From assembly GCA_965240135.1 (NCBI GenBank), contig CBDEJQ010000029.1:1592-65591 (forward strand): a stretch of 64,000 bases of DNA, read 5' to 3'. Shown here one piece after another: positions 43,563 through 62,800 of this stretch. Numbering within the stretch: position 1 is the stretch's first letter; every line of letters begins with the position of its first letter. This DNA is from an uncultured Candidatus Saccharibacteria bacterium (lineage in GTDB: Bacteria; Patescibacteriota; Saccharimonadia; Saccharimonadales; Saccharimonadaceae). The notes beneath the pieces were generated by a model that was not told the DNA's origin, did no database searches, and saw only the letters and a list, made by a program, of their open reading frames with translations. A program made the position numbers and the translations under genes.

Positions 43563-43652
43563 TGGCGGAAGGGGAGGGATTCGAACCCTCGGTACGTTTT
43601 ACCGCACGCCGGTTTTCAAGACCGGTACCTTCAACCACTCGGTCACCCTTCC
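43563..43652 (-). tRNA. tRNA-Ser (anticodon UGA)
   Basis: Reverse complement GGAAGGGTGACCGAGTGGTTGAAGGTACCGGTCTTGAAAACCGG...GAGGGTTCGAATCCCTCCCCTTCCGCCA. The anticodon loop is CTTGAAA and the variable arm is long. Confidence 0.9.
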
Positions 43653-43669
43653 GTACTATCTCTGAATTT

Positions 43670-43762
43670 TGGCGGAGGAGGGGGGATTCGAACCCCCGCT
43701 ACAGATCTCTCCATACTAACGATTTAGCAAACCGTCCCCTTCAGCCACTTGGGTACTCCTCC
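43670..43762 (-). tRNA. tRNA-Ser (anticodon GCU)
   Basis: Reverse complement GGAGGAGTACCCAAGTGGCTGAAGGGGACGGTTTGCTAAATCGT...GCGGGGGTTCGAATCCCCCCTCCTCCGCCA. The anticodon loop is TTGCTAA and the variable arm is long. Confidence 0.88.
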
Positions 43763-43834
43763 AAATTCACTATTTAGTGTACCATAGAAGTGTAATTATT
43801 AATAGCTTTATCGTAAATAGGGTATAATAGAATT

Positions 43835-44242
43835 ATGGTAAAAGGATATATTTCTAAAATTATAACAGGATTACTTACAATCGGATTCGGCGTAGCTTTA
43901 GTAACGGCTCCAGTTTCTGCATTAGGTGAGGGCGGTGCGCCAGCCGGAATTAACGCGGCACGCGGCGACAATACGCCGTCCAACTTGGCTAATGGCGATT
44001 CATCAATCGTAAGGCGAGCCATCAACATTATGCTATTCGGCGTCGGCGTCTTAAGCGTCGTTATGCTGATCTTCGGCGGTTTCCGCTACGTAATATCTGG
44101 CGGTAAAAAAGAATCTGTCACAAACGCCAAAAACACAATTTTATATGCAATCATCGGTCTATTAGTCGCAGTCTTTGCCTACGCCATAATCAACTTCATC
44201 CTTGGCGCAGCTTTAAGCGGCGGATCAACCACTAACGTTTAA
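43835..44242 (+). CDS. VirB2/TrbC-like (T4SS pilin-like) small membrane protein, paralog 1 (outlier copy)
   Basis: 135 aa. It has a signal peptide (…APVSALGEG) and then the family core INIMLFGVGVLSVVMLIFGGFRYVISGGKKESVTNAKNTILYAIIGLLVAVFAYAIINFILG. This is two TM helices flanking an S-G-G/D..K..AK loop. TATAAT lies 6 nt before the ATG. Confidence 0.65.
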   Translation: MVKGYISKIITGLLTIGFGVALVTAPVSALGEGGAPAGINAARGDNTPSNLANGDSSIVRRAINIMLFGVGVLSVVMLIFGGFRYVISGGKKESVTNAKNTILYAIIGLLVAVFAYAIINFILGAALSGGSTTNV

Positions 44243-44262
44243 TTGTTCACTAATTCTCATCG

Positions 44263-44271
44263 TGATATACT
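44263..44271 (+). promoter_or_regulatory. extended -10 TGATATACT, 6 nt before ATG 44278
   Basis: Read directly from the sequence. The gap is AACGTC and there is no SD. Confidence 0.45.
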
Positions 44272-44277
44272 AACGTC

Positions 44278-44796
44278 ATGAACGATAGTCCAGAAAACCA
44301 AGGCTTTGAAACGCTAGCACCCGACAGGATTGATTTAACCGAGCCAATAGCCTGGAACGCACCAGAAGGCGTGCAGGTTCAACGCGGTAAATTGTGGTAC
44401 GTGTTTTTTGTCATTGTGTTGATAGGATTAATGGCTTTGGCTATTTTGGTGTTCAAGAACTGGACTTTCGCAGTTTTGTTGCCAATTATGGCTGTAGCCT
44501 TGTTTGTATTATCAAACAAAACCCCACAAGTAATAAACTACGCGATTAGCCCCAAAGGCATTTACATCGCCGATATTTTACACGATTTTAGCGAATTTCG
44601 CGCGTTTGGATTAATTCACGAAAACAACCAACATTCGATTCTATTATTGCCAGTAAAACGATTTTCGCCAGGTTTAACTATTTACTTTTCCGAGACAGAA
44701 GGCGAAAGAATCGTCGACATGCTCGGAGCGCGCCTACCAATGCAAGAAATTAAACCAGACGCCTTAGAGAAATTTATTCGGCTGATAAAGCTATAG
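44278..44796 (+). CDS. hypothetical two-TM membrane protein
   Basis: 172 aa. A hairpin of TMs (LWYVFFVIVLIGLMALAILVF, FAVLLPIMAVALFVL) is followed by a ~90-aa soluble domain. Confidence 0.6.
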   Translation: MNDSPENQGFETLAPDRIDLTEPIAWNAPEGVQVQRGKLWYVFFVIVLIGLMALAILVFKNWTFAVLLPIMAVALFVLSNKTPQVINYAISPKGIYIADILHDFSEFRAFGLIHENNQHSILLLPVKRFSPGLTIYFSETEGERIVDMLGARLPMQEIKPDALEKFIRLIKL

Positions 44797-44903
44797 CTTG
44801 ATTGACTATATTTTATGTGGTAGAATACAAAAGTTCAGTGCTTTATAGCAATGAAAGTACTTTACATTTTTATTATGGCCAATCGATTTTCGAAAGGCTG
44901 TAT

Positions 44904-44980
44904 GCACCCGTAGCTCAGCTGGATAGAGCGCTGGCTTGCGGAGCCAGAGGTCGTAAGTTCGAATCTTGCCGGGTGTACCA
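44904..44980 (+). tRNA. tRNA-Arg (anticodon GCG)
   Basis: GCACCCGTAGCTCAGCTGGATAGAGCGCTGGCTTGCGGAGCCAGAGGTCGTAAGTTCGAATCTTGCCGGGTGTACCA. The anticodon stem is CTGGC/GCCAG and the loop is TTGCGGA. Confidence 0.88.
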
Positions 44981-44998
44981 ATTAACCTAAGGAGGGGT

Positions 44999-45232
44999 AT
45001 GAATTTTATTAAGTACGTAAAATATGCACTTTTAACAATTGCCACGATTCTCGTAACCGCCATTTCAGTCTTGTTAGCAGCAGTAATTATTGAAATGATA
45101 ACTTGGAATGAAGCTGGTAAATGGATTATTTCATTCTTTGAACTGGCAGGCATTAGTTTACTATTGAGTGTTATCTGGATCGCTATCGGCACCACAATTG
45201 CCAAAGATTCAAAGAAAACTGATAAAAAATAA
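44999..45232 (+). CDS. small hypothetical membrane protein (77 aa) between two tRNA genes
   Basis: A strong AAGGAGGGG SD lies 3 nt before ATG 44999. Two predicted TMs. The ORF-track N-terminus (44966) reads out of the tRNA and is trimmed. Confidence 0.6.
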   Translation: MNFIKYVKYALLTIATILVTAISVLLAAVIIEMITWNEAGKWIISFFELAGISLLLSVIWIAIGTTIAKDSKKTDKK

Positions 45233-45253
45233 TTTCCCAAATTAGTTAGATAC

Positions 45254-45341
45254 GGAGAGGTGCAGGAGTGGTTGAACTGGCCGCTCTCGAAAAGCGGTAT
45301 GGGGCAACTCATCGAGGGTTCGAATCCCTCTCTCTCCGCCA
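45254..45341 (+). tRNA. tRNA-Ser (anticodon CGA)
   Basis: GGAGAGGTGCAGGAGTGGTTGAACTGGCCGCTCTCGAAAAGCGG...GAGGGTTCGAATCCCTCTCTCTCCGCCA. The anticodon loop is CTCGAAA and the variable arm is long. Confidence 0.9.
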
Positions 45342-45349
45342 TAGATATT

Positions 45350-45802
45350 ATGAAAATCACCATTATAACAATCGGAAAAAAGAATGAAGCCTGGGTTCAA
45401 CCAGGCGTTTCTCGTTTTTTAGAGCGTCTACGAGCACCTTTTGCTGCGGAAATGATTATTCTACCGCATTCAAGCTTTGAAGGCGACAGAGCGCGCCAGG
45501 AAGAGTCTGAGCGTATTTTTTCACGCCTTAATTCAGATGACTTCGTTATTTTGCTTGATGAGCGCGGTAAAAACTTATCATCACCGGAATTATCCGACCT
45601 AATAACCGAACATATCGACAAACACATTGTCTTCATCATCGGTGGCGCTTACGGAGTTACTAGCGACTTGCGCCAAAAATCTAACGTCGTCTGGTCGTTA
45701 TCAAACTTAGTGTTTCCGCACCAATTAGTTCGTCTTATTTTAGCTGAGCAATTATACCGCGCCCAAGAAATCTATCGCGGCAGTCATTATCATCACTCAT
45801 AG
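45350..45802 (+). CDS. rlmH: 23S rRNA (pseudouridine1915-N3)-methyltransferase
   Basis: 150 aa from MKITIITIGKK. SPOUT-type C-terminus: IVFIIGGAYGV...LSNLVFPHQLVRLILAEQLYRA. The ORF-track N-terminus overlaps the tRNA and is trimmed. Confidence 0.88.
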   Translation: MKITIITIGKKNEAWVQPGVSRFLERLRAPFAAEMIILPHSSFEGDRARQEESERIFSRLNSDDFVILLDERGKNLSSPELSDLITEHIDKHIVFIIGGAYGVTSDLRQKSNVVWSLSNLVFPHQLVRLILAEQLYRAQEIYRGSHYHHS

Positions 45803-46471
45803 CTTCGGGCGCCCGTGCCTGGCAATAACCGCAATTTCCACGTGTTTGACGCCATTTTTCTTCAAACATTCCGCCGCCGCCAACACAGTTGAGCCAGTCG
45901 TAAAGATATCGTCAATAATGATATATCGCTTATTTTTATCAACTTTACCCGCAATTTCAAAAAACTCCTTTGCTTGACGTTTTCTCTGGGCGGAAGACTT
46001 TGTAAAGTGCTGAGTTACGTTATTTCTGCGCCGGAGCAGGGAACGGCACTCTATTTTTCTACGTCGAGATAATTTAATAGCAATTTTTCGGATATGATCA
46101 AATCCACGACGCCGAATATTCTTAGAAATTGTAGGAATTGGTACGATTACTGTATCTGGCGGCAATTCAGGCAGGGCTTCGTCTAAGAACTCGCTTAGTA
46201 AATCAGCCGCTGCCTGAACGCGGTTAAACTTATAATCATCAATAATCTTTGCAACAACACCCGTACGTCGTGAAAAACACCAGATCATATCACAGGGGAG
46301 CTTATGCTTTTTACATAAATTGCCATTCTCCAATAAATCACCACATAATACACACATATCATACTTCCGACTGATGATGTATTTTTTACAATCTAAGCAT
46401 AAAATATCACCCGTTTTACCACACTTATAACAGTGGTGAGGAGCGATGATCGATAATAGCGTGTCAAACAT
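45797..46471 (-). CDS. comF: ComF family protein (ComFC-like phosphoribosyltransferase fold)
   Basis: N-terminal Cys4 clusters (CYKCGK...CLDC, CVLCGD...C) and a PRT motif YIIIDDIFTTGST. Confidence 0.8.
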   Translation of the reverse strand: MFDTLLSIIAPHHCYKCGKTGDILCLDCKKYIISRKYDMCVLCGDLLENGNLCKKHKLPCDMIWCFSRRTGVVAKIIDDYKFNRVQAAADLLSEFLDEALPELPPDTVIVPIPTISKNIRRRGFDHIRKIAIKLSRRRKIECRSLLRRRNNVTQHFTKSSAQRKRQAKEFFEIAGKVDKNKRYIIIDDIFTTGSTVLAAAECLKKNGVKHVEIAVIARHGRPKL

Positions 46472-46575
46472 TGTAATTTTTACGTTTTAAGCCTTTCTCT
46501 GTTGATTATAACGCACATTACAGTTATACTAATAAAGACTTTGTCAATGAGCCTATTATAAAAGTGGAGGAAATT

Positions 46576-47070
46576 ATGGCCCGAAAGCAAGATGATACAT
46601 TACTAACAGAACAGGAATTGGCAGCGGCGTTTATTGATGATGATAACGACGATCTGCTACCTGGTTTTAACGACGACAATAGTAGAAACAACAGCACACC
46701 AGCAACACGATCCGATGACAACTGGGAAGACGAGGCTGATGATGCAATGGGTCAATTGGCTGTTGACGTTTTTGAGACAGAAAACAACCTAGTTATCAAA
46801 GCTCGTACTGCTGGCGTAGATCGAAACGACCTAGACGTAAGCATTTCTGACGGCATCTTAACAATTAGCGGCACACTGTCTAGTGGTGACGAAGCAGATG
46901 TTCGCCAATGGCACATTCAGGAATGTTACTGGGGCGAATTCAGCCGTACATTAGCATTGCCAACCGCTGTGAATGAAGAAGGCGTTAAGGCAGAATTAAA
47001 AGATGGCGTTTTGACAATTACTTTCGAAAAGATAAAGCAAGAAAGAGCAAAGAAGATTCAAGTTCTGTAA
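46576..47070 (+). CDS. Hsp20/alpha-crystallin family small heat-shock protein
   Basis: Alpha-crystallin domain: AVDVFETENNLVIKARTAGVDRNDLDVSISDGILTISG...FSRTLALP...AELKDGVLTITFEK. GGAGG SD lies before ATG 46576. Confidence 0.88.
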   Translation: MARKQDDTLLTEQELAAAFIDDDNDDLLPGFNDDNSRNNSTPATRSDDNWEDEADDAMGQLAVDVFETENNLVIKARTAGVDRNDLDVSISDGILTISGTLSSGDEADVRQWHIQECYWGEFSRTLALPTAVNEEGVKAELKDGVLTITFEKIKQERAKKIQVL

Positions 47071-47123
47071 AAAACCATTTTACAGAAAATACCGTCACAA
47101 GTTGGCGGTATTTTTTTAACCAT

Positions 47124-47158
47124 AAAAAAAAGAGCCTCGCTGATGAGGCTCTTTTTTA
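47124..47158. terminator. bidirectional intrinsic terminator between hsp20 (+) and the pilin-like operon (-)
   Basis: A-run, then 8-bp stem AGAGCCTC / GAGGCTCT with loop GCTGAT, then a T-run. Confidence 0.8.
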
Positions 47159-47171
47159 TTAATAGGAAAGA

Positions 47172-47555
47172 TTATGATCCTGATGCAATCTTACCAATAA
47201 CCATATTGACGATTGCGTATGCCAAAATTGCAACCACCAAACCAACAATTGCGTACAAAACTGTATTCTTAGCCGCCTGAACCTTATTACTATCACCGGC
47301 TGAAGTAGTGTAACGAATACCACCCCAGATAAGCATAATAACGCTCAATGCACCAACAGCAAACAAGAATATGTTCACAAACTGCTTAACTAAAGATTCA
47401 GGGTCTGTAGATACCTGATCAACTCCCGTTCCTTGCGCGCTACTAACACCACCCTTTAGAGTAAAGTCTCCTTCAGCGCTTGCAGCTGGAGCTACAGCCA
47501 AAGCAACAGTTGGTACTACCAGTAGTCCTGCCAAGATTAATTTTAATTTATTCAT
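47172..47555 (-). CDS. VirB2/TrbC-like pilin-like protein, paralog 2
   Basis: 127 aa. Signal peptide (…APAASAEGD). Core: NIFLFAVGALSVIMLIWGGIRYTTSAGDSNKVQAAKNTVLYAIVGLVVAILAYAIVNMVIG. AAGGAG SD. Confidence 0.65.
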   Translation of the reverse strand: MNKLKLILAGLLVVPTVALAVAPAASAEGDFTLKGGVSSAQGTGVDQVSTDPESLVKQFVNIFLFAVGALSVIMLIWGGIRYTTSAGDSNKVQAAKNTVLYAIVGLVVAILAYAIVNMVIGKIASGS

Positions 47556-47631
47556 TGTTATTTTCTCCTTGTTTAATGATATTACTATTATATATTTTTA
47601 TCTGTTATTTGTAAAACTAATTATGGATTTA

Positions 47632-48009
47632 TCATAGTCGCTTTATAACCATATTGACAATCGCCCATGCCATAATAGCCACAATTAACCCAACTACTGA
47701 ATATATAAGTGTACTCTGAGCAGATTTTGTCTTTGAAGCGTCACCAGATGAAGTAATGTAACGAAAACCGCTAAAAATAATCATAATAACAGACAAAATA
47801 CCCACAGCCCAAAGTAAAATATTAACTACTGTTTTTATTAGACCGCTATCACCGTCAATACTTTTGCCTTGCATTTCCGATGTTGTAGCCGTATCAATTC
47901 CTTTAGATACCTGAGCAGAAACACTGCCTGACAGGGAAGCGGTAGATAAAACCGACGCCCCAAACACCGCACATGTCATAATTGCTATTGATATTATTGA
48001 TTTTTTCAT
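47632..48009 (-). CDS. VirB2/TrbC-like pilin-like protein, paralog 3
   Basis: 125 aa. Signal peptide. Core: NILLWAVGILSVIMIIFSGFRYITSSGDASKTKSAQSTLIYSVVGLIVAIMAWAIVNMVIK. AGGAG SD. Confidence 0.65.
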   Translation of the reverse strand: MKKSIISIAIMTCAVFGASVLSTASLSGSVSAQVSKGIDTATTSEMQGKSIDGDSGLIKTVVNILLWAVGILSVIMIIFSGFRYITSSGDASKTKSAQSTLIYSVVGLIVAIMAWAIVNMVIKRL

Positions 48010-48017
48010 ATTTTCTC

Positions 48018-48398
48018 CTAATTAAACCTATTAAATACAAAATTAACAATTGCCGATGCGAATAACGATACAGCTAAACCGACTACCGCATATAAAACAG
48101 TATTCCTGGCTTTTGCAGCTTTTTGGGCGTCACCACTAGAAAGTGCAAACATAATACCGCCAATAACTATCATAATAATCGAAATAGCACCAACGGCCGT
48201 AAGTAGAACTTCAACGATAGTTTTTATAATACCGTTAACTTGAGTCTCACCACTGCCCCTATTTTTACAATAGACAGAGTTTTCATTTCCATTTGAGCAA
48301 ATATTAATACCGTTAGCTGCGGATGCCGCTGGAGCAAACACGCCAAGGAGACCAACCATTAACATTCCAGCAGTCAGAATTTTCGTAAAAATCTTCAT
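48018..48398 (-). CDS. VirB2/TrbC-like pilin-like protein, paralog 4
   Basis: 126 aa. Signal peptide and a Cys pair (NICSNGNENSVYCKN). Core: VLLTAVGAISIIMIVIGGIMFALSSGDAQKAAKARNTVLYAVVGLAVSLFASAIVNFVFN. Confidence 0.65.
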   Translation of the reverse strand: MKIFTKILTAGMLMVGLLGVFAPAASAANGINICSNGNENSVYCKNRGSGETQVNGIIKTIVEVLLTAVGAISIIMIVIGGIMFALSSGDAQKAAKARNTVLYAVVGLAVSLFASAIVNFVFNRFN

Positions 48399-48399
48399 C

Positions 48400-48684
48400 T
48401 TAAACCTTTCCTATAATATACTTTGTTATAGCAATCGCACTAGCAGCAATAACCAGACCAATGACTGAATATAAAATAGCATTCTTTGCGCTGGCGGTTT
48501 TGGACGGATCGCCAGAGGACAGGGAATAATTTATTCCAGCAATAATCACCACAATAACAGCTATAATACCAGCCACCCAAAGCGCCAGATCAACAAACTT
48601 CATAATATCTACATCGTTATTCTTTGGCACGCCAAGATCACCTGCCTCTCCTAATAATCCAGCAAAAAATTCTATATATCTCAT
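48400..48684 (-). CDS. VirB2/TrbC-like pilin-like protein, paralog 5 (no obvious signal peptide)
   Basis: 94 aa. Core: LALWVAGIIAVIVVIIAGINYSLSSGDPSKTASAKNAILYSVIGLVIAASAIAITKYIIG. A short non-hydrophobic N-terminus precedes it. Confidence 0.6.
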   Translation of the reverse strand: MRYIEFFAGLLGEAGDLGVPKNNDVDIMKFVDLALWVAGIIAVIVVIIAGINYSLSSGDPSKTASAKNAILYSVIGLVIAASAIAITKYIIGKV

Positions 48685-48685
48685 T

Positions 48686-49123
48686 TTATACCCCTATCTT
48701 TGATGATATAAAGTTGACTAGCGCAACAGAGGCTAGAGCGATGACTAAACCAATCGCTGCGCTCATAATAGTTTTTCGTCCATGAGCAGCCTTATCTGGA
48801 GCGCCGTTACTGGTCATCATCAAGAAACCACCGTACATGATATATCCAACAGTCACATAGCCAATAAGTTGCAGCAAATCATCAACGATATTAAGCGCGA
48901 TTTTCCAAATATAGTTAGCTTGAGAATTAGTATCTGCGCCTGGACTTTTAAGGGAACAGTTATGGTCATTATTAGTTAAGCCGCTATACCATGGTTTTAA
49001 CGTTAAAATCTTTCCCTTATTAGAGCATGCATCATCTTCCGCAAAAGAAATGCCCGGGAAAGTTACACTCGCCCCAAACGACCCCATAATCATTAAAGAC
49101 ATCGCTATTATAATCTTTTTCAT
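48686..49123 (-). CDS. VirB2/TrbC-like pilin-like protein, paralog 6
   Basis: 145 aa. Signal peptide and a Cys pair (ACSNKG...HNCSLK). Divergent core: LIGYVTVGYIMYGGFLMMTSNGAPDKAAHGRKTIMSAAIGLVIALASVALVNFISS. AGGAGG SD. Confidence 0.6.
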   Translation of the reverse strand: MKKIIIAMSLMIMGSFGASVTFPGISFAEDDACSNKGKILTLKPWYSGLTNNDHNCSLKSPGADTNSQANYIWKIALNIVDDLLQLIGYVTVGYIMYGGFLMMTSNGAPDKAAHGRKTIMSAAIGLVIALASVALVNFISSKIGV

Positions 49124-49494
49124 TAATCGAAAACTCCTCCTGGAATAATAAAGTTGGTAATTGCCACCATAAACGCAAACATTATTACCCCAATGACAGT
49201 ATTCGTCCAGACTTCACGTGCTTTTTTTATCTTATCAGGGCTTCCTTCGGAAGTAGTATATAAGAATGCCCCATATATAACAGCACCAACCGCCGCAACT
49301 CCAATACCAGCAGTTAAAATCTTAATGACTTGCTTTATTATATTAATGATTGCTGTACTGCCCTTACCTTCACAAGAAATAATAGAGGTTTCCGCACCAC
49401 CACACTCAATAGCCAAAGCTATTCTGGGTATAAAAATACTTCCTGCGATTACTGTTGCGATGAATATACTGATTACAATATTTCTTTTTGTCAT
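49123..49494 (-). CDS. VirB2/TrbC-like pilin-like protein, paralog 7 (first gene of the operon)
   Basis: 123 aa. Signal peptide and a Cys pair (IECGGAETSIISCEG). Core: GIGVAAVGAVIYGAFLYTTSEGSPDKIKKAREVWTNTVIGVIMFAFMVAITNFIIP. Confidence 0.6.
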   Translation of the reverse strand: MTKRNIVISIFIATVIAGSIFIPRIALAIECGGAETSIISCEGKGSTAIINIIKQVIKILTAGIGVAAVGAVIYGAFLYTTSEGSPDKIKKAREVWTNTVIGVIMFAFMVAITNFIIPGGVFD

Positions 49495-49597: not shown

Positions 49598-49675
49598 GCG
49601 CTCGTAGTGAAGTTGGCCTATCACGCCTCCCTGTCACGGAGGAGATCGCCGGTTCGAATCCGGTCGAGCGCGCCA
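49598..49675 (+). tRNA. tRNA-Asp (anticodon GUC)
   Basis: GCGCTCGTAGTGAAGTTGGCCTATCACGCCTCCCTGTCACGGAGGAGATCGCCGGTTCGAATCCGGTCGAGCGCGCCA. The anticodon loop is CTGTCAC. Confidence 0.9.
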
Positions 49676-49709: not shown

Positions 49710-49838
49710 ATGAAAAAATATTCCACATTTATTGCATTTATGTACAATTTATGTTATGATATCGCCAATTGGACTGAAAAGTCTAAGGAGTTTTACAATA
49801 AAATACCTGACAATGTCAGAGAAAGGACCCCAAGCGTT

Positions 49839-50942
49839 ATGGTTTATAACCCTAATAACCCAAGCGGTTCATCAAAAGAAATACCTAGGAGGAGGTTCCT
49901 GCTAGGAGCAGGCGTAATCGCCACAGCAACAGCACTTATGCTGGGTGGCTGCGGAGAACAACAAGACAGTCCACAACCTACATATAGCAGCTCAGAAGAA
50001 GCAAGCACTCCTACCCCTACTTCAACCGAATCAACGCCAACGGCACGTCGTACTCCAGAGGAAATAAAAAATTTAGAGTTCACAGGATTACCTGAATTAG
50101 TTAGTACAATAAACGATTTAGATCCGAAAAAAGATCACAATAAAACACGTGAAGCTTTAATTGAGTTTATAAATGAGAACATAAAGGATGATTCCGCAAG
50201 AATAGATATAGATGAATATGGAAGAGTCTACACTTCTAAAGAAAATATTCCTGAAACTATGAAAAAAGTGGGAATGAATACAGTGCAAGGCTTATCTATA
50301 ATATCAAAACTATATGGAAGCAGTGTTCAATATGATTATCCTCTGCAAAAAAAAGATGCCGAAAAAATAATGGATGCATATGTTGAAAACTTTACGGTAG
50401 GATCAGGAAGAAAATCCCTAAATGATCTGATACCTAGTATAGCAAGTTATCCTATGAATCAAGGAAATAAACTATTTAAGCAGCTTGAGGTAGGTGCAGC
50501 TCTAACGCCTATATACGAAGCTGAACCAAAGGATGAAAAAGGCTCTTCTGTCATCTTTCGACGCAATAATCTTAATACTACAGAGGGCGAAACAAAAGAT
50601 CTACTACATAGCGATGGCTTAAACTGGACTAGTACATTTGCATATCAGGGATTTTTCCCTAAAGGTACTACCCCAGAAATATCAGGAGATACATTAACAG
50701 AAGTGGTTGTATTTGCAAGAACCACTAAAGAGAATGACCCTACATTATTAAATACTCCCGCAACAGAACAACAGGGAAATGCTACTCTATATGAGACAGA
50801 TGAGGGAATGTATATTACAGGAGTAATCGGAGCCATCAGAGATGTGAGCCAAGACAGTAAAATACCAACTCTCGTAAAGGGACAAGAGGTTCCAGCTAGT
50901 CAAGTTCCTCAGATAGAAAACTATTTTAAGTCTATAAAGTAA
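49839..50942 (+). CDS. putative lipoprotein, first gene of the T4SS-like operon
   Basis: From MVYNPNNPSGSSKEIPRRRFLLGAGVIATATALMLGGCGEQQ. It has a positively charged n-region with RRRF, a hydrophobic core and a lipobox L-G-G-C, followed by a Ser/Thr/Pro linker. An alternative upstream ATG at 49710 abuts the terminator and lacks an SD. Confidence 0.6.
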   Translation: MVYNPNNPSGSSKEIPRRRFLLGAGVIATATALMLGGCGEQQDSPQPTYSSSEEASTPTPTSTESTPTARRTPEEIKNLEFTGLPELVSTINDLDPKKDHNKTREALIEFINENIKDDSARIDIDEYGRVYTSKENIPETMKKVGMNTVQGLSIISKLYGSSVQYDYPLQKKDAEKIMDAYVENFTVGSGRKSLNDLIPSIASYPMNQGNKLFKQLEVGAALTPIYEAEPKDEKGSSVIFRRNNLNTTEGETKDLLHSDGLNWTSTFAYQGFFPKGTTPEISGDTLTEVVVFARTTKENDPTLLNTPATEQQGNATLYETDEGMYITGVIGAIRDVSQDSKIPTLVKGQEVPASQVPQIENYFKSIK

Positions 50943-50963: not shown

Positions 50964-50997
50964 AAACACCTTCATATATGATTAAATGAAGGTGTTT
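50964..50997 (+). other. perfect 12-bp hairpin between the lipoprotein gene and the first VirB6-like gene
   Basis: AAACACCTTCAT-ATATGATTAA-ATGAAGGTGTTT, followed by ATGTTTATT. The 3' arm carries the GAAGGTG SD for ATG 50998. Confidence 0.6.
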
Positions 50998-53508
50998 ATG
51001 TTTATTAGTGGGTGTGGTAGCAAATATAATTCTAAAAAAATAATTGCTTATTTGTTTATAAGTATTTTATTTATTATGTCAGCATCTATATCTATTATGT
51101 CTAAATCTGCGCTTGCTGAGGATATAGGAAAGAAAATAGAAAATGGCACCGCTTCATGTAAGGATGCGTCTAAAGGGGCTGGCGGCAAATCATGGAGAGA
51201 AACCAGAACTTTACATGGAAACCAAGGTTGGTGGTGGTGCGAATCATCAAGCGGCGAACGATTTCGACTAGATGAAATCCTATGCGCCGCAGGATATGAT
51301 ATAGAAGATAAAACCGAGGACTACAGGTCTCACTCATACAGAAAAACTCGTTGCATCAAAAAAACAGAAAACTCTAATAAAACTAGTACTATAGATAAAA
51401 GAGCTATAGCGCTAGCTAACACAGCAGGGCAATCAAAACTAGAGGGTGTCATACTTCCGAAAATTACAGACACACCATGGTTTAAGACGCTATCGGATAA
51501 AGATAAGCTAGATTCTGGATGCGTGGATAGCGGTGGCGGTAAAATCACTTGCGACGAACATGCTAAGATTACTTTGACAAAAGGATTAGTGGGCACATGT
51601 ATAGCTAGCGCTCGCACAACCGTTGCAAATCGTCCAGACGGACAAGATAAAAGTAATGAACAAATAGATAAAGCTTTTACCGACTGTATAACTGGAAATT
51701 CTGGACTAGACAAAGATACGGTAAATAATAATAAAACACCTATTGCTTGGAACGACATAGATAGTTATATAAGGGAAGAAGACAAAAAAGAAGCAGAAGC
51801 AACCGAAAAAAGTAAAGCTGATGAAGCAAAAAACTCATGCGGCATCGGTGGAATGGGATGGCTTATTTGTCCTCTAATGACTTTTATGGGGGAAATTGCT
51901 GATGCTTCTTATTCTGTAATATCACAGTTTCTTAATATTAACCCTGCTATCTTCGGTGAAGGATCCGACGCGGTAGGAGCAAAACAGGCATGGAACTTCT
52001 TTCGTGATATAGCAAACGTCATATTTGTATTACTGTTTTTATGGGTAATTTTCTCACAAGTCAGTAGTATTGGCATAAGTAATTACGGCATTAAAAAAAT
52101 CTTACCAAAATTAATAGTGGGAGCTATATTAGTAAACTTATCGTTTTATATATGTCAATTAGCCGTCGACTTATCCAACATCCTTGGCTTTACACTAAAA
52201 GAAGCTCTTGAAGGATCAGTATCTAGAGTTGGTGGATCGTCTTCAAATTCAGAAATATTGAGTGGTCTCGGCGCAGCAGTTGCTGGTATTCTAGTTCTTA
52301 CAGGAACAGTGCTATTTGCAGCGCTTGCAGTCAGTATACCAACACTACTATCTCTGATGTTAGTGCTGCTTGTCGTGCTTGTCATACTAATAGTTAGACA
52401 AGCAGCTATAGTGCTCCTAATATCAATTGCGCCCCTAGCATTTGCAGCTTGGCTCCTGCCAAACACCGAAAGTTTATTTAAAAAATGGGTATCGATGTTT
52501 AGGGGACTACTGATGGTTTTTCCTATAATATCTCTTTTGTATGGAGCTGGTAAATTAGCAGGGGCAATATTGGCGACAACAGCCACAAGTGACTCAAATG
52601 ACACTGCGATAACTATGCAGTTTGCAGCCTTGGCGGCGTCTATACTTCCATTAGGCGCTACGCCTTTCGTGCTAAAGAGCTCCCTAAATTCATTGGGCAG
52701 TATTGGCGCAAAGATAGGAAAAATGAGCGCCAATGCACACGGTCGATTCGCTGGAAATGTAAAGGGTGTAGCGAAAAGACGTGTTGACAATTCTGTTATT
52801 GGTGATACAAAAAGAAAATACTCAGACTTCATGGATAGAAAACGCGCAAGCATGCGAACGGGTAAATTTGCGACGTGGAGAGACAACAGTCCAGTCGGTC
52901 GATTCATGGGCTGGGATAAAGGTGGAGCACGCGCCCGCGCAACTGTAGCTAAAGCGTTCGAAAGTGATGTTGAAAACGCATCCACAATGTTACAAGGCAA
53001 GACATCGAAAGAGATATCCGATATAGCCAACGGCACAAACACAAATGCCTCAAAAGCTATGCGCGCGGCGGCTATTGATCATACTATGGCTAATGGTAGT
53101 TTTGAAGAACGTATGAATGTATTGAGTAGTCTAAAAGGTGCAGATACCTCTATAAAACAACGAGCAATTAAAGCTGCATACGCAAAGAAGGATAATAATA
53201 TCATAGGAAATGGATTAGGAGATGCTATACTCAAAGATGAAGTTGGAAATATGACTGATCTAGAGAATATGATGATAGATAATGCCGCATCTGGAAACTT
53301 ACAACCAGAACACCTAGTGCAAAACGCAGCGGCTACCAAATGGATAGTCGACACATCGGTTAAATCATATACAAATAATCTGGATAAACAAGCTAAGAAA
53401 GCCCTGAATAACTTTATAAGCACCGCTAAGGCTGCTAGGTCTAATCCAAACACTGCAAAAAATATAAACGGAAAAATAGATAGCACATTCCGTAAAGTTG
53501 GCGCTTGA
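50998..53508 (+). CDS. VirB6/TrbL-like large polytopic membrane protein, paralog A
   Basis: About 836 aa. It has a signal/TM segment, a ~290-aa Cys-rich ectodomain, the conserved motif SCGIGGMGWLICP, at least 6 TM helices (…SSIGISNYGIKKILPKLIVGAILVNLSFYICQLAVDLSNI…) and a ~290-aa basic C-terminal domain. The family assignment rests on topology and operon position only. Confidence 0.5.
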   Translation: MFISGCGSKYNSKKIIAYLFISILFIMSASISIMSKSALAEDIGKKIENGTASCKDASKGAGGKSWRETRTLHGNQGWWWCESSSGERFRLDEILCAAGYDIEDKTEDYRSHSYRKTRCIKKTENSNKTSTIDKRAIALANTAGQSKLEGVILPKITDTPWFKTLSDKDKLDSGCVDSGGGKITCDEHAKITLTKGLVGTCIASARTTVANRPDGQDKSNEQIDKAFTDCITGNSGLDKDTVNNNKTPIAWNDIDSYIREEDKKEAEATEKSKADEAKNSCGIGGMGWLICPLMTFMGEIADASYSVISQFLNINPAIFGEGSDAVGAKQAWNFFRDIANVIFVLLFLWVIFSQVSSIGISNYGIKKILPKLIVGAILVNLSFYICQLAVDLSNILGFTLKEALEGSVSRVGGSSSNSEILSGLGAAVAGILVLTGTVLFAALAVSIPTLLSLMLVLLVVLVILIVRQAAIVLLISIAPLAFAAWLLPNTESLFKKWVSMFRGLLMVFPIISLLYGAGKLAGAILATTATSDSNDTAITMQFAALAASILPLGATPFVLKSSLNSLGSIGAKIGKMSANAHGRFAGNVKGVAKRRVDNSVIGDTKRKYSDFMDRKRASMRTGKFATWRDNSPVGRFMGWDKGGARARATVAKAFESDVENASTMLQGKTSKEISDIANGTNTNASKAMRAAAIDHTMANGSFEERMNVLSSLKGADTSIKQRAIKAAYAKKDNNIIGNGLGDAILKDEVGNMTDLENMMIDNAASGNLQPEHLVQNAAATKWIVDTSVKSYTNNLDKQAKKALNNFISTAKAARSNPNTAKNINGKIDSTFRKVGA

Positions 53509-53554: not shown

Positions 53555-56071
53555 ATGGAGTGGTTAATTTTATACAGGCAACTCCTTAGTGCGAAGTTGC
53601 GTTGGTTTATATTGCTGATAGCAGGATTGCTGGTGAGCATTTTTTTCAGCACTTTCTTACATTCCACCTCTGTTTATGCCGCAGATGCAAAATGGGATGG
53701 TCATGATTTAACCTATTCTAATAAAAAATATACCAGGCTAACAGATAATAACAAAGTCAAGAAGTTTAATTTACCTGATAATTCGCTTGTTTATATCAAT
53801 GAAGATAAAAATAAAAAAGAAGTTAAAGTTATTTACTTCCCATCAGGCGAAATATCTTCACTAAGTTCCGCAACCTATGCGGTTTATTCTTTTACACCAC
53901 CAGATACTTATGATCAAACCGATACTTCAACTATTTCAATTGACCCTCCCTCAGAGAATTCAACCAGCACTTCCTGTGATGTACAGGGAATAGGTTGGTT
54001 TATCTGTCCAGTTTCTAACTGGCTGGCTGATGGTATTGATTTTATGTACAGTGCGCTTCAGCAATTCTTAAAAACTAAGCCATTAGAAACAACCAACCAA
54101 AATAGCGGAATTTATCTGGCGTGGGTCATTATGCGAAACATTAGCAACGTGGCGTTTATCGTGGCGTTTTTGGTGATTATCTACTCACAATTGACCTCTG
54201 TAGGAATTAGCAATTACGGCGTTAAAAAAATGCTCCCTAGGTTAGTGATTGCAGCGGTGTTAGTCAACTTATCATTTACGATTTGTGCTATTTTGCTTGA
54301 TTTATCAAACATAGCCGGCTACGCTTTCCAGGATGCCTTCATGGGAATTAAGAATACCATATCCACCGTAGGAGAAAATACAAGTACATGGACATGGTCG
54401 GAAGTTATCAGTACAGCACTGTCAAATGGAGCGCTGGCGGTAGGAGCAGGATACGCCGTATCGCTAGCACTTACTACGGAATTATTACCAATGCTAGTAC
54501 CTGCCGCGGCATTAGCTGGCTTAACTTTACTCCTCATACTCCTAATCATGGCCGCTCGTCAAGCGCTCATTATTATATTAATCATAATTTCACCTTTAGC
54601 CTTCGTTTGTTATTTACTTCCTGGCACAGAAAAGTGGTTTAAAAAATGGCGAGATTTATTCTTAACAATGCTAGTATTTTTCCCAGCATTCGCTGTAGTA
54701 TTCGGTGGAGCTCAACTGGCGGGAATAATAATTATACAAAATGCCTCTGGTCCAAATGGCGCAATAATGCATGTACTAGGCATGCTGGTTCAAATAATAC
54801 CTTTGGCTATAACTCCCCTAATTATGAAGTTCAGCGGTGGAGTATTAGGTAAGTTCGCTGGATTTGTTAACGATAAGAATAAGGGCTGGTACGACAGGAC
54901 TAAGAACTGGTCTAAAGATCGCCGTGAGACCATTAAAAACAAGAAGTTGGCTAACCCCAATATGGCGCGATTCAATCCAAATCGTTTACGCCGTTGGGCA
55001 GATCATAACAGTAGATTACGTAAAAAAAATCTGGAAACTTCGCAGAAAAATGCCGAGAATTCATTTAGAGATACAGCCAGGTATAAGAAGTCAGACTTAG
55101 ACGCCAGACAGGCTTCCAGGCGTGCAGATCTGTTATCCGCACAAGATGACAATCGCTACACCGAAGCTACGCTGGGTCACACACCAACTGATACGTATGG
55201 AAAGTACGATCGTGCTCTACGAGCTAAGTTCACTAAATATTCAAATTGGCGAGACGCGCAACAAGCTCAATTTATGTCAGACATTAAAGACCTAGAAACC
55301 GAAATTGCAACAGCAGGTCTGATTAAGAATAATGCTCAACGTCAGCAGCATAGTGAATTTGCAGAGCAATTGATAAACAGCAAGGAACTTCGAGAGAAGG
55401 CTGGCGGCAATGTATTCAAAGACGAGAATGGCAACCTAATTGGAGCAAATGCCGCTCTAGCTTCAGCCATAGCAACCAGCCGTAGCGAATACGCTAAGTC
55501 GGTCGACGAAGCTCGCCAAATTATAAAGCACTACAAATTGGATGCAAAACAGAGGCAGGGATTAGCCCTGAACAAGAAATCTATACCCCTTCCTGGTGGA
55601 GTTAATTTATCTGGAGATAGTATATTCGTACGTGAAGCTGCAATTGAAGAACAGATTAAATACGGTACCGCAACGGAAGTTGCCGAGCTTCTTAGTGAAT
55701 TGCCACCAGAATTCTACTCTTCTGCAGCCTCAGCACTAGCAGAATCTGGCGTAAAGAATAAAGCGTCATTCTTGGGCGGTAAACTTGTCGATGATATGCT
55801 GAAAGGTGATATTAATAACAGAAGTGACCTCATGAATTACTTTGCCAATTGGCTAGAGGGTGGTAAATATAAACCAGAAACTTTAGCGACTACGGATGCT
55901 GACGCTGTTAAGTTATTGATGGAAGCTGTAAATACCACCTCTGTGATTAGTAATAAAAAACGTCAAGATCTTAAGAAAGTTATCAACACAATTCTTACCG
56001 ATAAGAGGTTGTCAGCCAATGCAACTGATGCAACTAAAGAGCAATTTGAAATTTTCCGCAACATGCTATAA
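53555..56071 (+). CDS. VirB6/TrbL-like large polytopic membrane protein, paralog B
   Basis: 838 aa with the same architecture. Motif SCDVQGIGWFICP. TM block …TSVGISNYGVKKMLPRLVIAAVLVNLSFTICAILLDLSNI… is clearly paralogous to the upstream gene. The cytoplasmic C-terminal domain is long. Confidence 0.5.
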   Translation: MEWLILYRQLLSAKLRWFILLIAGLLVSIFFSTFLHSTSVYAADAKWDGHDLTYSNKKYTRLTDNNKVKKFNLPDNSLVYINEDKNKKEVKVIYFPSGEISSLSSATYAVYSFTPPDTYDQTDTSTISIDPPSENSTSTSCDVQGIGWFICPVSNWLADGIDFMYSALQQFLKTKPLETTNQNSGIYLAWVIMRNISNVAFIVAFLVIIYSQLTSVGISNYGVKKMLPRLVIAAVLVNLSFTICAILLDLSNIAGYAFQDAFMGIKNTISTVGENTSTWTWSEVISTALSNGALAVGAGYAVSLALTTELLPMLVPAAALAGLTLLLILLIMAARQALIIILIIISPLAFVCYLLPGTEKWFKKWRDLFLTMLVFFPAFAVVFGGAQLAGIIIIQNASGPNGAIMHVLGMLVQIIPLAITPLIMKFSGGVLGKFAGFVNDKNKGWYDRTKNWSKDRRETIKNKKLANPNMARFNPNRLRRWADHNSRLRKKNLETSQKNAENSFRDTARYKKSDLDARQASRRADLLSAQDDNRYTEATLGHTPTDTYGKYDRALRAKFTKYSNWRDAQQAQFMSDIKDLETEIATAGLIKNNAQRQQHSEFAEQLINSKELREKAGGNVFKDENGNLIGANAALASAIATSRSEYAKSVDEARQIIKHYKLDAKQRQGLALNKKSIPLPGGVNLSGDSIFVREAAIEEQIKYGTATEVAELLSELPPEFYSSAASALAESGVKNKASFLGGKLVDDMLKGDINNRSDLMNYFANWLEGGKYKPETLATTDADAVKLLMEAVNTTSVISNKKRQDLKKVINTILTDKRLSANATDATKEQFEIFRNML

Positions 56072-56100: not shown

Positions 56101-57012
56101 ATGTCGGTGTATAAAGTTCCTCAAGACGTCGAGGCGGAGGACAAACTGCTCGGGCCGTTTAGTTTCCGGCAGTTTGTGTTCTTAATTATAGCTGTTATCG
56201 GAATCGCTATTGCATACGGTTTGAGTACAATTTTTCTACCTTTGGCAATAATTCCTGTACCGATAATTTTATTCTTTGGAGCGCTAGCTTTACCTCTTAA
56301 AAAAGACCAGCCAATGGAAGTTTATTTGGCGGCAGTTATTTCTTTTATGCTAAAACCAAAAAAGCGTCTATGGCAGCCTGATGGAATTGAAAGATTGGTC
56401 GAAGTTATCGCGCCAAAAGTCGAGGAAAAGACTTACGGCAATAACTACGATCAAGCCGAAGTCCAGCGAAGATTGTCATATTTGGCGAACCTGGTAGACA
56501 GTCAGGGTTGGTCAATTCGTGGCGTCAATAATCCGAATAGCTCAATGCGTGCCGATTTATTCAACGAAGGACAGGCAGCTAATGACATATTGGATGAAAA
56601 TAGCACTACGGCGCAAAATATCAATCACTTAATAAATCAGTCCGATGTTCGTAGGCGACAAGAAGTTATCCAAAAGATGCAAACAGAGCAATCTGCTACG
56701 CCGCCTCCTACGCAAACACCCCAATCATCTCAACCAGATAATCCTACTCCAGCCACACCGCTACAAATGAATCCGTACCCAACAATGCGTCAATCTGTAT
56801 TAAATCCAGCGTCCGAACGGCCTGCCGCGAGCGCTCCAGCTCAAACTCGACCGACAACTACGCCGCAAACTAGCGTAAACGAGGTGTCACCTGCTATAAT
56901 AGAACTGGCAAATAACCGCGACCTCTCGATTGAAACGATTGCGCGTGAGGCAAATCGAATTCAGCAAGAAAATAAATTATCAGATGAGGAAGTGGTGATT
57001 TCACTACGTTAG
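56101..57012 (+). CDS. PrgI/TcpE-like (VirB3-analogous) membrane protein
   Basis: The N-terminus is MSVYKVPQDVEAEDKLLGPFSFRQFVFLIIAVIGIAIAYGL, followed by a second TM. This pattern is characteristic of PrgI-family proteins encoded just upstream of VirB4. The tail is Pro/Thr/Gln-rich. Confidence 0.55.
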   Translation: MSVYKVPQDVEAEDKLLGPFSFRQFVFLIIAVIGIAIAYGLSTIFLPLAIIPVPIILFFGALALPLKKDQPMEVYLAAVISFMLKPKKRLWQPDGIERLVEVIAPKVEEKTYGNNYDQAEVQRRLSYLANLVDSQGWSIRGVNNPNSSMRADLFNEGQAANDILDENSTTAQNINHLINQSDVRRRQEVIQKMQTEQSATPPPTQTPQSSQPDNPTPATPLQMNPYPTMRQSVLNPASERPAASAPAQTRPTTTPQTSVNEVSPAIIELANNRDLSIETIAREANRIQQENKLSDEEVVISLR

Positions 57013-57021
57013 GTGGGGTTT

Positions 57022-57897
57022 ATGCAACCAGAGTTACAAAATCAACAATCTTATCAGCAGGTTCCGCAAACCAATGCGGCTCTTCCTGGTGTCCCTCAGC
57101 AGCCATCAGTAGCAATTGGTTCGGGACCAAATCCAACCACACCATCTCCAGATAAAACCCCTGACGACAAGAAGCAAAAAGGACCAATTAGCACTCAGAA
57201 TACGCTACTTTTCTCTGAAATGCGCGAAAATATGATTATCATGAGCGATGGCAGTTTTCGGGCGGTAGTGGAATGTGAATCAATTAACTTCGACCTTATG
57301 AGTTCACGCGAAAGAGAGGGGATTGAGTTCAGTTATCAAAACTTCATCAACTCTCTATATTTCCCAATTCAAGTTCTTATTCGTTCACGCCGCGTGGATA
57401 TCGGTCCGTATCTGGACAGATTGGCTGAAATTCGCCGCAATCAAGACAATATGCTTCTCAACGTCCTAATGGACGATTATATGGATTTTATTGATATTCT
57501 GGCACAAGAAGCAAATATTATGGATAAGAGTTTTTATGTTGTCGTTCCGTATTATCCAGCTGGCGAGGAAAATGCTTTCAAACAACAGACTAAGGGATTA
57601 TTCAATAGCTTCTTCAGCGGAAAAAAAGAGGCAACCGTAACAAAAATTGACCAAGTTACTTACACCAAAGCCAAAGATGAAATTAAAAACCGCGTCGATT
57701 CGGTTATGAACGGACTATTCCAAATGGGCGTAAAAAGTTGGCAATTAAATACCAGGCAACTGGGTGAGTTGTTCTACACTTCATATAATCCCGACACGTC
57801 GTCACGTGAATCGCTAGAAGGAATTGACCCGAGCGAGCTTACGACCACTTATGTAACTAAGGGAACTGGTCCATCACCGAGAGGAGGAAGGTTATAA
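57022..57897 (+). CDS. VirB4 N-terminal-domain-like protein (separate ORF)
   Basis: A Q/P-rich leader precedes LLFSEMRENMIIMSDGSFRAVVECESINFDLMSSREREGIEFSYQNFINSLYFPIQVLIRSRRVDIGPYL. This resembles the extreme N-terminal region of Gram-positive VirB4 ATPases. The stop overlaps the next ATG (ATAATGG). ATG 57022 has an AGGTGGGG SD. Confidence 0.5.
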   Translation: MQPELQNQQSYQQVPQTNAALPGVPQQPSVAIGSGPNPTTPSPDKTPDDKKQKGPISTQNTLLFSEMRENMIIMSDGSFRAVVECESINFDLMSSREREGIEFSYQNFINSLYFPIQVLIRSRRVDIGPYLDRLAEIRRNQDNMLLNVLMDDYMDFIDILAQEANIMDKSFYVVVPYYPAGEENAFKQQTKGLFNSFFSGKKEATVTKIDQVTYTKAKDEIKNRVDSVMNGLFQMGVKSWQLNTRQLGELFYTSYNPDTSSRESLEGIDPSELTTTYVTKGTGPSPRGGRL

Positions 57898-62700: not shown

Positions 62701-62800
62701 GGCTAACGCTCATAAATACGGATATGTACATCCTGCCTGGGCTGAACCAGGTAGAAGAAATCCCGAACAGTGGCACTGGGAGTATGCAAGGAAGGTCTAA
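59774..62800 (+). CDS. large polytopic protein with C-terminal M15 (VanY-like, LAS-family) peptidoglycan peptidase domain
   Basis: 1008 aa. It has an acidic disordered N-terminus and several hydrophobic segments. The C-terminus carries SNHGWGLAAD (SxHxxGxAxD) and PEQWHWEY (ExWH). This is the position occupied by the cell-wall hydrolase in Gram-positive T4SS operons. Confidence 0.65.
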   Translation: MARVDYTTDSETDSRLNPAEQAKFDQISAGSDSGSELSDREKDVINDLESQFDNKDSDLNPSQNDSASAAVNNQESSVPGNGFYQPSAGKKKSPVTFKSLLKKRGPIAAIAGTLGLGGGIMGIFLSPATMLQNIMENFTQKNDSASIVKEVRMKKVMNKMIDAGDDAGICKSKKIRCKTGRLSNRALKKFKKSGLIPVDANGKEMDVKGRGYPEKNPTHWKIEGVNDGKPIEASKLKDELLKKENRKIASKVYGRAGLFNMRFRSWTGKHISRLYSKFNLKRNSAISKIDKKLGIKERREKLKEKLPKFEEGRAIGNIREGVNKLGGKLKKGGLAYTISAGACAAVKIPNLIAAGVAAIQLAPLLGLVMDVVLSPGSQAKASGLGNQPVTALLFGQKALAAESTGGSGFSQETMETIGTMLTERGKMEGSENTEGSALDSPYLLAAMGVNSNKPGIAKNYIPGYSVATNPIVQGFNEVKKATDGVCDYILSPVAMYASMAIEAAVSASTGGISAIISWVGKAALSEVIKKVLEYAVGEQVKNILTELAKSLLTPDKAQYKDLGDALGVGAAAFFSAGSMGQMLPGLKMSQLAEFNGIQIANEEFQKEMDIASLSPFDTSSRYTFLGSIFHNMGNMMMANGTYSKTPVAMLSNILRLPSMALSYSSTAKAASGMYSDKYCGYAKDFSMGSGSSEDPAINLAGMPCSGITKSQANMSVEEAIQIAEDEGWIKKDTDIPDGADISDLMTSGYIVKDTPLYDFIEDCSTAEKGEYWFNSGGCTAPTDSTQTTSSTAPTYKDNENKDITDQSFGADNSAKQYDDKKLSAMSVLLIDFQIAQSINGEDDEEEAPSTTAKAPDNGEAIGEPQLEEAQQDGWGGHSNGEIPDSELQTLSFSPGNKMNKKAAAAMEEMNKAYKADNGSDLTINEAYRDCATQIRYRKELGEKAAPAPPCISNHGWGLAADIEVGAFGSSTYNWLKANAHKYGYVHPAWAEPGRRNPEQWHWEYARKV

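Follow-up and report, generated by a model that had tools for sequence, protein, structure and literature searches.

Seven small genes in a stretch of Saccharibacterial DNA very probably encode VirB2-like pilin subunits of the Pfam family PF18895, serving a chromosomal, monoderm-type type IV secretion system (T4SS). That stretch, called the window below, comprises 64,000 nucleotides (nt) of contig CBDEJQ010000029.1 (GenBank assembly GCA_965240135.1) and comes from a Nanosynbacter-type human-oral Saccharibacterium. We number the paralogs P1 to P7 by operon order: P1 to P6 form an array and P7 is solitary (Table 1). All seven proteins score above the gathering threshold of PF18895 (T4SS_pilin; 29.0-48.1 bits, cut-off 26.6 bits), and the array adjoins a T4SS operon. 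An array of this kind is already in the literature (2018, 2023 and 2025); the window holds a further strain's copy of it, not a new kind of element.

A family of seven two-helix proteins

We built a profile hidden Markov model (HMM) from P1 to P7 and searched all six reading frames of the window with it. The seven members were recovered at E values of 1e-31 to 1e-50, as one family and with the coordinates and strands given by a first-pass annotation that had been made from the sequence. No eighth copy was found among the six-frame open-reading frames (ORFs) with this model. The next-best ORF reached 5e-4, so the window contains exactly seven copies of a family that stands far beyond chance. 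Pairwise identity over the common core is 26-44% to P7 and 24-49% to mature P6 in alignments of the seven, and five residues are invariant (G71, S88, G90, G108 and A117 in P7 numbering). P1, P2 and P3 are separate old lineages, while P4 to P7 form a tighter subgroup; the nearest paralog of P7 is P6 (44-46% identity). The first-pass annotation had described a shared motif, with Y/F and A-K/R in the loop region and a second helix ending in (I/V)N(F/M). A common core is indeed present in all seven, but the motif is looser than had been stated and is not strict in P1, P2 or P3: P2 has M for Y/F and G-R for A-K/R, and the second helix ends in ITKY in P3 and ITNF in P1.

The array is as tightly packed as first described, with a single larger gap before its last gene. 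Moving from P1 to P6, the junctions are a 1-nt overlap followed by gaps of 1, 1, 8 and 76 nt. P7 lies 2.9 kb from the array, between two tRNA-Ser genes and a tRNA-Arg/tRNA-Ser pair. Five tRNA genes (Ser-TGA, Ser-GCT, Arg-GCG, Ser-CGA and Asp-GTC) are interspersed with the pilin genes, at 43563-45341 and 49598-49675.

Six of the seven proteins are built as a signal peptide and then two hydrophobic helices with a short charged loop between them; P3 has no signal peptide. Hydropathy gives P1 and P4 to P7 a signal-like N-terminal hydrophobic segment and two hydrophobic helices. P2 exceeds the threshold in its signal-like segment and its second helix but not in its first core helix, and P3 has two helices alone. 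The stop-to-stop frame of P3 is 97 codons in nearly all loci and extends three codons upstream of the start, which leaves no room for a signal peptide. AxA-type cleavage sites were read by eye; the likely site in P1 falls between ALA and I. Pairs of Cys residues lie within the variable segment, between signal peptide and core, of P1 (C31/C41), P2 (C33/C56) and P4 (C34/C44). Three copies with a Cys pair, one copy without a signal peptide and one copy 3 kb away among tRNA genes had all been noted in the first pass, and all three observations hold. An AlphaFold2 model of mature P6, computed with the seven paralogs as its sole alignment, is a helical hairpin (helices 25-57 and 62-98; predicted local distance difference test score, pLDDT, 66), in agreement with hydropathy.

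The proteins had been called pilin-like with two transmembrane segments, and that description is borne out by the PF18895 matches and the adjoining T4SS operon; the pilin type is that of conjugative VirB2 and not of type IV pili. Type IV pilus pilins were considered and rejected: the N-termini of the seven (MVKGY, MNKLK, MKKSI, MKIFT, MRYIE, MKKII and MTKRN) show no class III signal or N-methylation motif, and no such Pfam family matches at E<=1.

An adjacent type IV secretion operon

The genes that were key to identifying the family are missing from the first-pass annotation. The array is transcribed divergently from a plus-strand T4SS operon, with tRNA-Asp in the intervening region and a distance of 8.4 kb from array to virB4. 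Six tandem PF18895 genes near virB4 constitute a patescibacterial VirB2-like array, defined as at least two PF18895 or PF04956 genes in tandem or one gene apart, near virB4 (Quiñonero-Coronel, 2025). The operon encodes VirB4, TrsD, PrgI and VirB6 in a patescibacterial host, the combination that characterizes a chromosomal T4SS resembling the mating-pair formation (MPF) type MPF-FATA. The rest of the window is housekeeping in content (PolA, DnaG, ArgRS, CTP synthase, ribonucleotide reductase, GroEL, Mur ligases and LeuRS). By its T4SS parts and its housekeeping context, this is a chromosomal, monoderm-type T4SS with VirB2-like pilins. Neither a coupling protein nor a relaxase was seen among the window ORFs tested.

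Orthologs of the TrsD-like protein are recorded as carrying PF26593 (TraC-like), and VirB4 function appears, from the sequences, to be split between this protein and the 619-residue ATPase. TrsD is the most abundant T4SS component in Patescibacteria (Quiñonero-Coronel, 2025). The two genes overlap by 1 nt, at 57897. The 1008-residue protein with an M15 peptidase domain probably fills the role of the cell-wall hydrolase VirB1/PrgK; SEML1_0007 of Candidatus Southlakia epibionticum (S. epibionticum), in the equivalent position, is a peptidase M15B homolog.

As a fold, the two-helix hairpin is very simple: many unrelated examples come up in Foldseek, and several weak Pfam matches point to unrelated membrane families. 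The seven could then be small membrane proteins unrelated to secretion, such as holins or bacteriocin immunity proteins, that look pilin-like by hydrophobic composition. This explanation is extremely unlikely given that every member exceeds the PF18895 cut-off, that the surroundings are T4SS and housekeeping genes, and that the linkage of such arrays to virB4 is conserved across Patescibacteria (Quiñonero-Coronel, 2025). A holin or other phage origin was rejected: PHROGs gave two marginal matches (E about 0.007), neither of them a holin or lysis family, and there is no phage context. The first-pass annotation had named placement in a holin or immunity family as the result that would overturn its pilin reading, and the family searches did not give that result. 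No phage or bacteriocin genes were seen near the array, where the neighbours are T4SS and housekeeping genes.

Two matches bear on where such pilins arose. Model NF045849, the Mbov_0395 family of pilin-like conjugal transfer proteins, matches P6 over nearly its full length at 38.8 bits (E 5e-10), just under the equivalog cut-off of 40, and P2 at E 1e-6. The VirB4 of the window matches the VirB4 model of a Mycoplasma integrative and conjugative element (ICE) at E 4e-82. Because of these matches, monoderm MPF-FATA systems may have PF18895-type pilins of their own, with no borrowing from a diderm T4SS needed, an origin that the 2025 survey had left open (Quiñonero-Coronel, 2025). Unlike the window genes, the Mycoplasma protein of the Mbov_0395 family is found on a mobile element.

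Published precedents and related systems

In G1 Saccharibacteria, a row of small proteins with signal peptides had been described next to VirB4, VirB6 and PrgI and related to VirB2 (McLean, 2018, 10.1101/258137). The array of Nanosynbacter lyticus TM7x and other G1 strains, also called the 'Sec secreted array' (PMC12102498), belongs to the same genus-level lineage as the window and occupies a syntenic locus by VirB4/VirB6/PrgI. It was counted at four to six genes, whereas the window has six plus one, including one without a signal peptide. Across Patescibacteria, 441 arrays of 2-11 pilins were found in 383 assemblies, with a mean within-array identity of 25% (Quiñonero-Coronel, 2025). A FEMS review of 2025 singles out the array as the reason for supposing that a Gram-positive-type T4SS might build a pilus.

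The closest experimental precedent is S. epibionticum, in which the six tandem PF18895 genes SEML1_0014-0019 are each essential when the organism grows on its host bacterium and the solitary opposite-strand 'pilin' SEML1_0024 is not (Wang, 2023, Cell, PMC10633639). Structural matches to TrbC/VirB2 are recorded there with template-modelling (TM) scores up to about 0.75 (Wang, 2023, PMC10633639). We compared strain ML1 with the window by gene order and neighbours, gene for gene. In both, six PF18895 genes diverge from an operon running from VirB6 through PrgI and VirB4 to the peptidase, and the third gene is short (SEML1_0016, 312 nt). The array is followed in both by Hsp20, a ComF-type gene, tRNA-Ser and the solitary pilin, SEML1_0024 having the position and strand of P7. 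Unlike the window, S. epibionticum is of another genus, and its pilin lengths are 132, 185, 103, 126, 127, 138 and 144 residues.

A different interpretation of the array is that its products are Sec-secreted effectors that act on the host bacterium and are not structural parts of a T4SS. A TM7x transcriptome study labels the six array genes 'putative effector genes', half of which rise in stable symbiosis; McLean (2018) first described the array simply as small signal-peptide proteins, and the N-terminal segments differ between strains. The mature proteins, however, consist mostly of paired long hydrophobic helices, as would be expected of a subunit in a membrane or polymer but not of a soluble effector. 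In addition, all seven belong to PF18895, P3 has no signal peptide, and the cores are the conserved part. We therefore consider an effector role very unlikely.

Diderm VirB2, TrbC and TraA (PF04956), the subunits of T-pili and F-pili, resemble the window proteins in having a signal peptide that is cleaved off and a pair of hydrophobic helices linked by a short charged loop, as well as in size and in a gene position by virB3, virB4 and virB6. Unlike those systems, the window belongs to a monoderm, has six or seven divergent subunits in place of one major pilin, and is without VirB5, VirB7, VirB9 and VirB10. The VirB2-like PrgF of the Enterococcus plasmid pCF10, which has counterparts on other conjugative plasmids of Gram-positive bacteria, likewise serves an MPF-FATA-type T4SS of a monoderm, one that includes PrgI and a CD1110-family VirB4. 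PrgF is needed for conjugation and was modelled as stacking on a VirB6 pentamer (ter Beek, 2025 preprint, 10.64898/2025.12.18.695078); its topology is outside-membrane-inside-membrane-outside. In contrast to the window genes, PrgF is a single 75-residue product without a signal peptide or a PF18895 match, and the pCF10 system is a conjugative one carried on a plasmid, where a relaxase and a coupling protein are also present.

Conservation of the locus

Protein P6 occurs in identical form in 1025 blocks of a public assembly collection, where its contigs, some 730 kb long, come from human oral metagenomes. Its relatives number 1392, and the matches listed are orthologs with 84-99% identity; one P6 ortholog carries the NCBI name 'pilin'. 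The species-representative genomes that hold close relatives are named Candidatus Nanosynbacter or Saccharibacteria, and one locus (L005) agrees with the window exactly in each of the 19 proteins that were compared. Where a genome is complete, the locus is found 10-30 kb from the record start. Almost all full-length Nanosynbacter loci show the six-plus-one layout, in which positional orthologs pair one to one, and the short signal-less member is kept at array position three. The order from P1, P2 and short P3 to P6, with the solitary P7 on the opposite strand, is still discernible far deeper in the class, in Saccharibacteria with about 62% identity of leucyl-tRNA synthetase (LeuRS), and the positional ortholog of P1 is retained as far as these loci.

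Four loci with P6 relatives (L049, L081, L082 and L084) lie on bins labelled Erysipelotrichaceae or Gammaproteobacteria. Over 90 residues the relative in L049 shares 87% identity with the Nanosynbacter protein, and on the basis of this identity L049 is probably a mis-binned Saccharibacterial contig.

Variation among strains

The first-pass annotation had raised surface or antigenic variation and had called for substitution rates of the variable segment across strains. We estimated pairwise Nei-Gojobori rates of nonsynonymous (dN) and synonymous (dS) change, per gene and concatenated, over 40 loci with all seven genes, using strain pairs with a LeuRS dS of 0.1-0.6. LeuRS itself has a dN of 0.006-0.008 and a dN/dS of 0.02, the pilin cores 0.035 and 0.11, and the variable segments 0.11 and 0.20. 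Nonsynonymous change in the variable segments is thus about 3 times that of the cores and about 15-19 times that of LeuRS. The cores are under purifying selection, at a dN/dS of about 0.1. The variable segments evolve fast yet, by these pairwise estimates, without net positive selection: none of the 690 strain pairs had a variable-segment dN/dS above 1. The ratio stayed at or below 1 both per gene and in the concatenated set.

The genes differ in how they vary. P7 is the most conserved of the seven. P6 has the most conserved signal peptide and core of the six array genes and the most variable exposed N-terminal segment. P5 falls into two allele classes, with 94-100% and 61-66% identity to the window copy, and certain alleles of P4 and P5 are longer at the C-terminus by 15-16 residues (15 in P4). 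Loci L014, L015, L021, L026 and L031 are among those concerned. The allele classes do not track LeuRS divergence. At synonymous sites the variable segments diverge more than LeuRS does; this and the two P5 classes hint at allele exchange between strains.

Such a pattern invites the idea, raised by Quiñonero-Coronel (2025), that the paralogs form an antigenic or host-range repertoire. The copies would be interchangeable occupants of one pilin position under positive selection, as proposed for the VirB2 proteins of Bartonella and Anaplasma. Those T4SSs also have several divergent VirB2-type genes in a row, and the pace of nonsynonymous change, the P5 classes, the length variants of P4 and P5 and the elevated dS of the variable segments would all suit a repertoire. 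The Bartonella and Anaplasma systems, however, are diderm, target host cells and are thought to be antigenically variable, whereas the window copies are ancient, keep a fixed order and show purifying selection. Each paralog has a fixed-position ortholog genus-wide and beyond. The array is one packed, apparently co-transcribed operon of full-length copies with no truncated silent cassette, and the individual essentiality of its six genes in S. epibionticum argues against redundancy. A dN/dS of about 0.2 that is never above 1 leaves antigenic-variation-type selection unsupported, and we judge a repertoire of this kind unlikely. The other suggestion of the first pass, a set of major and minor subunits, fits the old positional orthologs, the single packed operon, the essentiality in S. 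epibionticum and the expression signals of P6 described below.

Two proteins of the neighbouring operon vary far more than the pilins. Between strains whose LeuRS is 98-99% identical, the 410-residue lipoprotein-like protein has about 24-30% identity over residues 120-410, and the first approximately 280 residues of the first VirB6-like protein have about 30%. Conservation is far higher in the membrane core of the latter (65-83% identity), in the second VirB6-like protein (78-100% across strains) and in PrgI. The lipoprotein-like protein and the ectodomain of the first VirB6 are thus better candidates for host-strain specificity than the pilins.

Expression signals

Each gene had been credited with its own Shine-Dalgarno (SD) sequence. 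The SD is clear for P2 (GGAGGA), P4, P5 and P6, weak for P1 and P3, and absent upstream of the P7 ATG. The 76-nt gap between P5 and P6 (47556-47631) contains the best-scoring sigma-70-like promoter site of the 6.3-kb region, with 11 of 12 consensus positions. This gap, including the promoter-like site and the SD, is kept genus-wide, though the 3' end of P5 has diverged, and we infer that the site acts as a promoter for P6. The terminator-like hairpin after P6 is kept across loci with compensatory changes in its stem. A conserved promoter-like site of its own, a strong SD and a terminator would be compatible with a major subunit, and it is for these reasons that we propose P6 as the bulk pilin. 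The segment 43799-43837 (plus strand), at the start of P7, holds a TTAATA-18-TATAAT element whose TATAAT, at 43823-43828, ends 6 nt before the ATG. Given this spacing and the lack of an SD, the P7 mRNA is probably leaderless.

Table 1. Pilin genes, expression signals and T4SS operon genes of the window (positions are those of the window; aa, amino acids)
Feature	Position	Strand	Description
P7	43835-44242	+	Solitary seventh pilin, 135 aa; PF18895 37 bits
Terminator-like hairpin	47126-47157	-	Intrinsic-terminator-like hairpin and T-run, directly 3' of P6
P6	47172-47555	-	Final array gene, 127 aa, candidate major subunit; PF18895 46.8 bits
Promoter-like site	47587-47615	-	Sigma-70-like TTTACA-17-TATAAT in the 76-nt P5-P6 gap, then SD AAGGAG
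P5	47632-48009	-	125 aa, signal peptide with likely cut between VSA and Q; PF18895 41.2 bits
P4	48018-48398	-	126 aa, signal peptide with likely cut between ASA and A; PF18895 38.1 bits
P3	48400-48684	-	Short, 94 aa, without signal peptide; PF18895 48.1 bits
P2	48686-49123	-	145 aa, longest variable segment (residues 29-73); PF18895 36.1 bits
P1	49123-49494	-	First array gene, 123 aa; PF18895 29.0 bits
Lipoprotein-like protein	49710-50942	+	Exported, 410 aa, first T4SS-operon gene; no Pfam family
VirB6/TrbL-like protein a	50986-53508	+	Polytopic, 840 aa; PF19590 TrbL_3 recorded on orthologs
VirB6/TrbL-like protein b	53555-56071	+	Polytopic, 838 aa; PF19590 TrbL_3 recorded on orthologs
PrgI/VirB3-like protein	56101-57012	+	303 aa; PF12666 PrgI, E=3.8e-14
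TrsD-like protein	57013-57897	+	294 aa, resembles the N-terminal part of VirB4; NF041427 E=4.5e-4, NF045975 E=4.1e-5
VirB4 ATPase	57897-59756	+	619 aa, monoderm CD1110 type; NF045971 E=1e-114, 384 bits (cut-off 325); PF19044
M15 peptidase protein	59774-62800	+	1008 aa, C-terminal VanY/M15 peptidase domain; PF02557 E=1.1e-11

Elsewhere in the window, ORFs of 564 residues (2524-4218, minus strand) and 408 residues (16646-17872, minus strand) match no Pfam family at E<=1e-5.

A model for the array products

The arrangement suggests how these proteins might be used. Six of the seven would be Sec substrates whose signal peptides are removed by signal peptidase I at the AxA-type sites, leaving each subunit as a helical hairpin in the membrane with its variable N-terminal segment and its C-terminus outside. 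The conserved, net-basic loop (S-x-G-D-x-x-K...A-K/R-N) would face the cytoplasm. P3, whose short N-tail is net acidic, may insert without a signal peptide. VirB4 would power the extraction of subunits from the membrane, and these may polymerise on a VirB6 platform into a short pilus or a conduit across the wall. In such a structure the charged loop would line the lumen, and the outside would carry the variable N-terminal segments, some of them with disulfide bonds. The age and fixed order of the six operon genes, and their individual essentiality in S. epibionticum, suggest that each product has a non-redundant part in a single structure. The bulk subunit would be P6, with P1 to P5 as minor or specialised subunits, and P7 may be a dispensable extra copy related to P6. 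Contact or exchange with the actinobacterial host cell would be the most likely purpose of the structure.

A more detailed version of this model can be put forward tentatively, and we think it rather unlikely to be right. The six operon genes would together build one heteropolymeric, conjugative-type pilus in a bacterium with no outer membrane. P6, transcribed from its own internal promoter, would supply the bulk of the polymer, and P3 and the Cys-paired P1, P2 and P4 would take fixed positions at the base, adaptor or tip. The range of host strains open to a given Saccharibacterium would be set by the strain-variable outer N-terminal segments together with the hypervariable lipoprotein and the ectodomain of the first VirB6.

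Evidence for and against homology to VirB2

Direct tests of descent from VirB2 gave weak results. The TrbC/VirB2 family PF04956 matches P2 to P6 below threshold (13.7-20 bits, E 8e-4 to 0.07). The best of these, P6 at 20.0 bits (E=8e-4), falls short of the gathering score of 27.9, and P1 and P7 have no match; Agrobacterium VirB2, used as a control, scores 63 bits. An hhalign comparison of the seven with pCF10 PrgF is weak (P=0.026, probability 1.9%). A tblastn search of 72,556 plasmids with P6 returned one marginal, unannotated match, on a Priestia megaplasmid, which suggests that the family is uncommon on sequenced plasmids at this sensitivity.

Several points weigh against our interpretation of the seven genes as pilin subunits of a T4SS. 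When the seven were compared by hhalign with seven MPF-T VirB2/TrbC proteins, in a set rebuilt from plasmid records, the result was not significant (P=0.0085, probability 4.7%); the helices did align in register, and the score was 20.6 against 12.6-13.5 for reversed-sequence controls. Foldseek searches of the PDB with the P6 model (pLDDT 66) returned generic helical hairpins, the best at E 0.94 and none at E<=0.001. An archaeal conjugation pilin of Aeropyrum (8dfu) came at rank 8, with E 2.1 and TM scores of 0.46/0.54. The model and these matches speak neither for nor against a VirB2 fold. The seven-member profile found one chance sequence match among solved structures, a ubiquinol oxidase at E 0.21. 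In no Patescibacterium has a pilus built from these proteins been observed. The essentiality recorded by transposon-insertion sequencing may be partly polar in so tightly packed an operon. The role of major subunit is assigned to P6 from sequence signals, and in one published transcriptome paper the six genes of the array count as secreted effectors. Because the direct tests of VirB2 homology are weak, we place the genes in PF18895 and not in PF04956. They are filed under PF18895 and the patescibacterial pilin array, and they are VirB2-like in architecture and context only.

Implications

What is new here amounts to small points: the promoter-like site and terminator of P6, the rates of the variable segments, and the variation of the lipoprotein and the VirB6 ectodomain. 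The Saccharibacterial T4SS is essential for epibiotic growth, and its function has been called 'completely unknown' (PMC11665869). It is chiefly the pilin array that raises the suspicion that a monoderm T4SS can build a pilus. The fixed six-plus-one order, the signal-less member, the signals around P6, the net purifying selection on the variable segments and the stronger variation of the lipoprotein and the VirB6 ectodomain could be useful in the design of experiments on this system.

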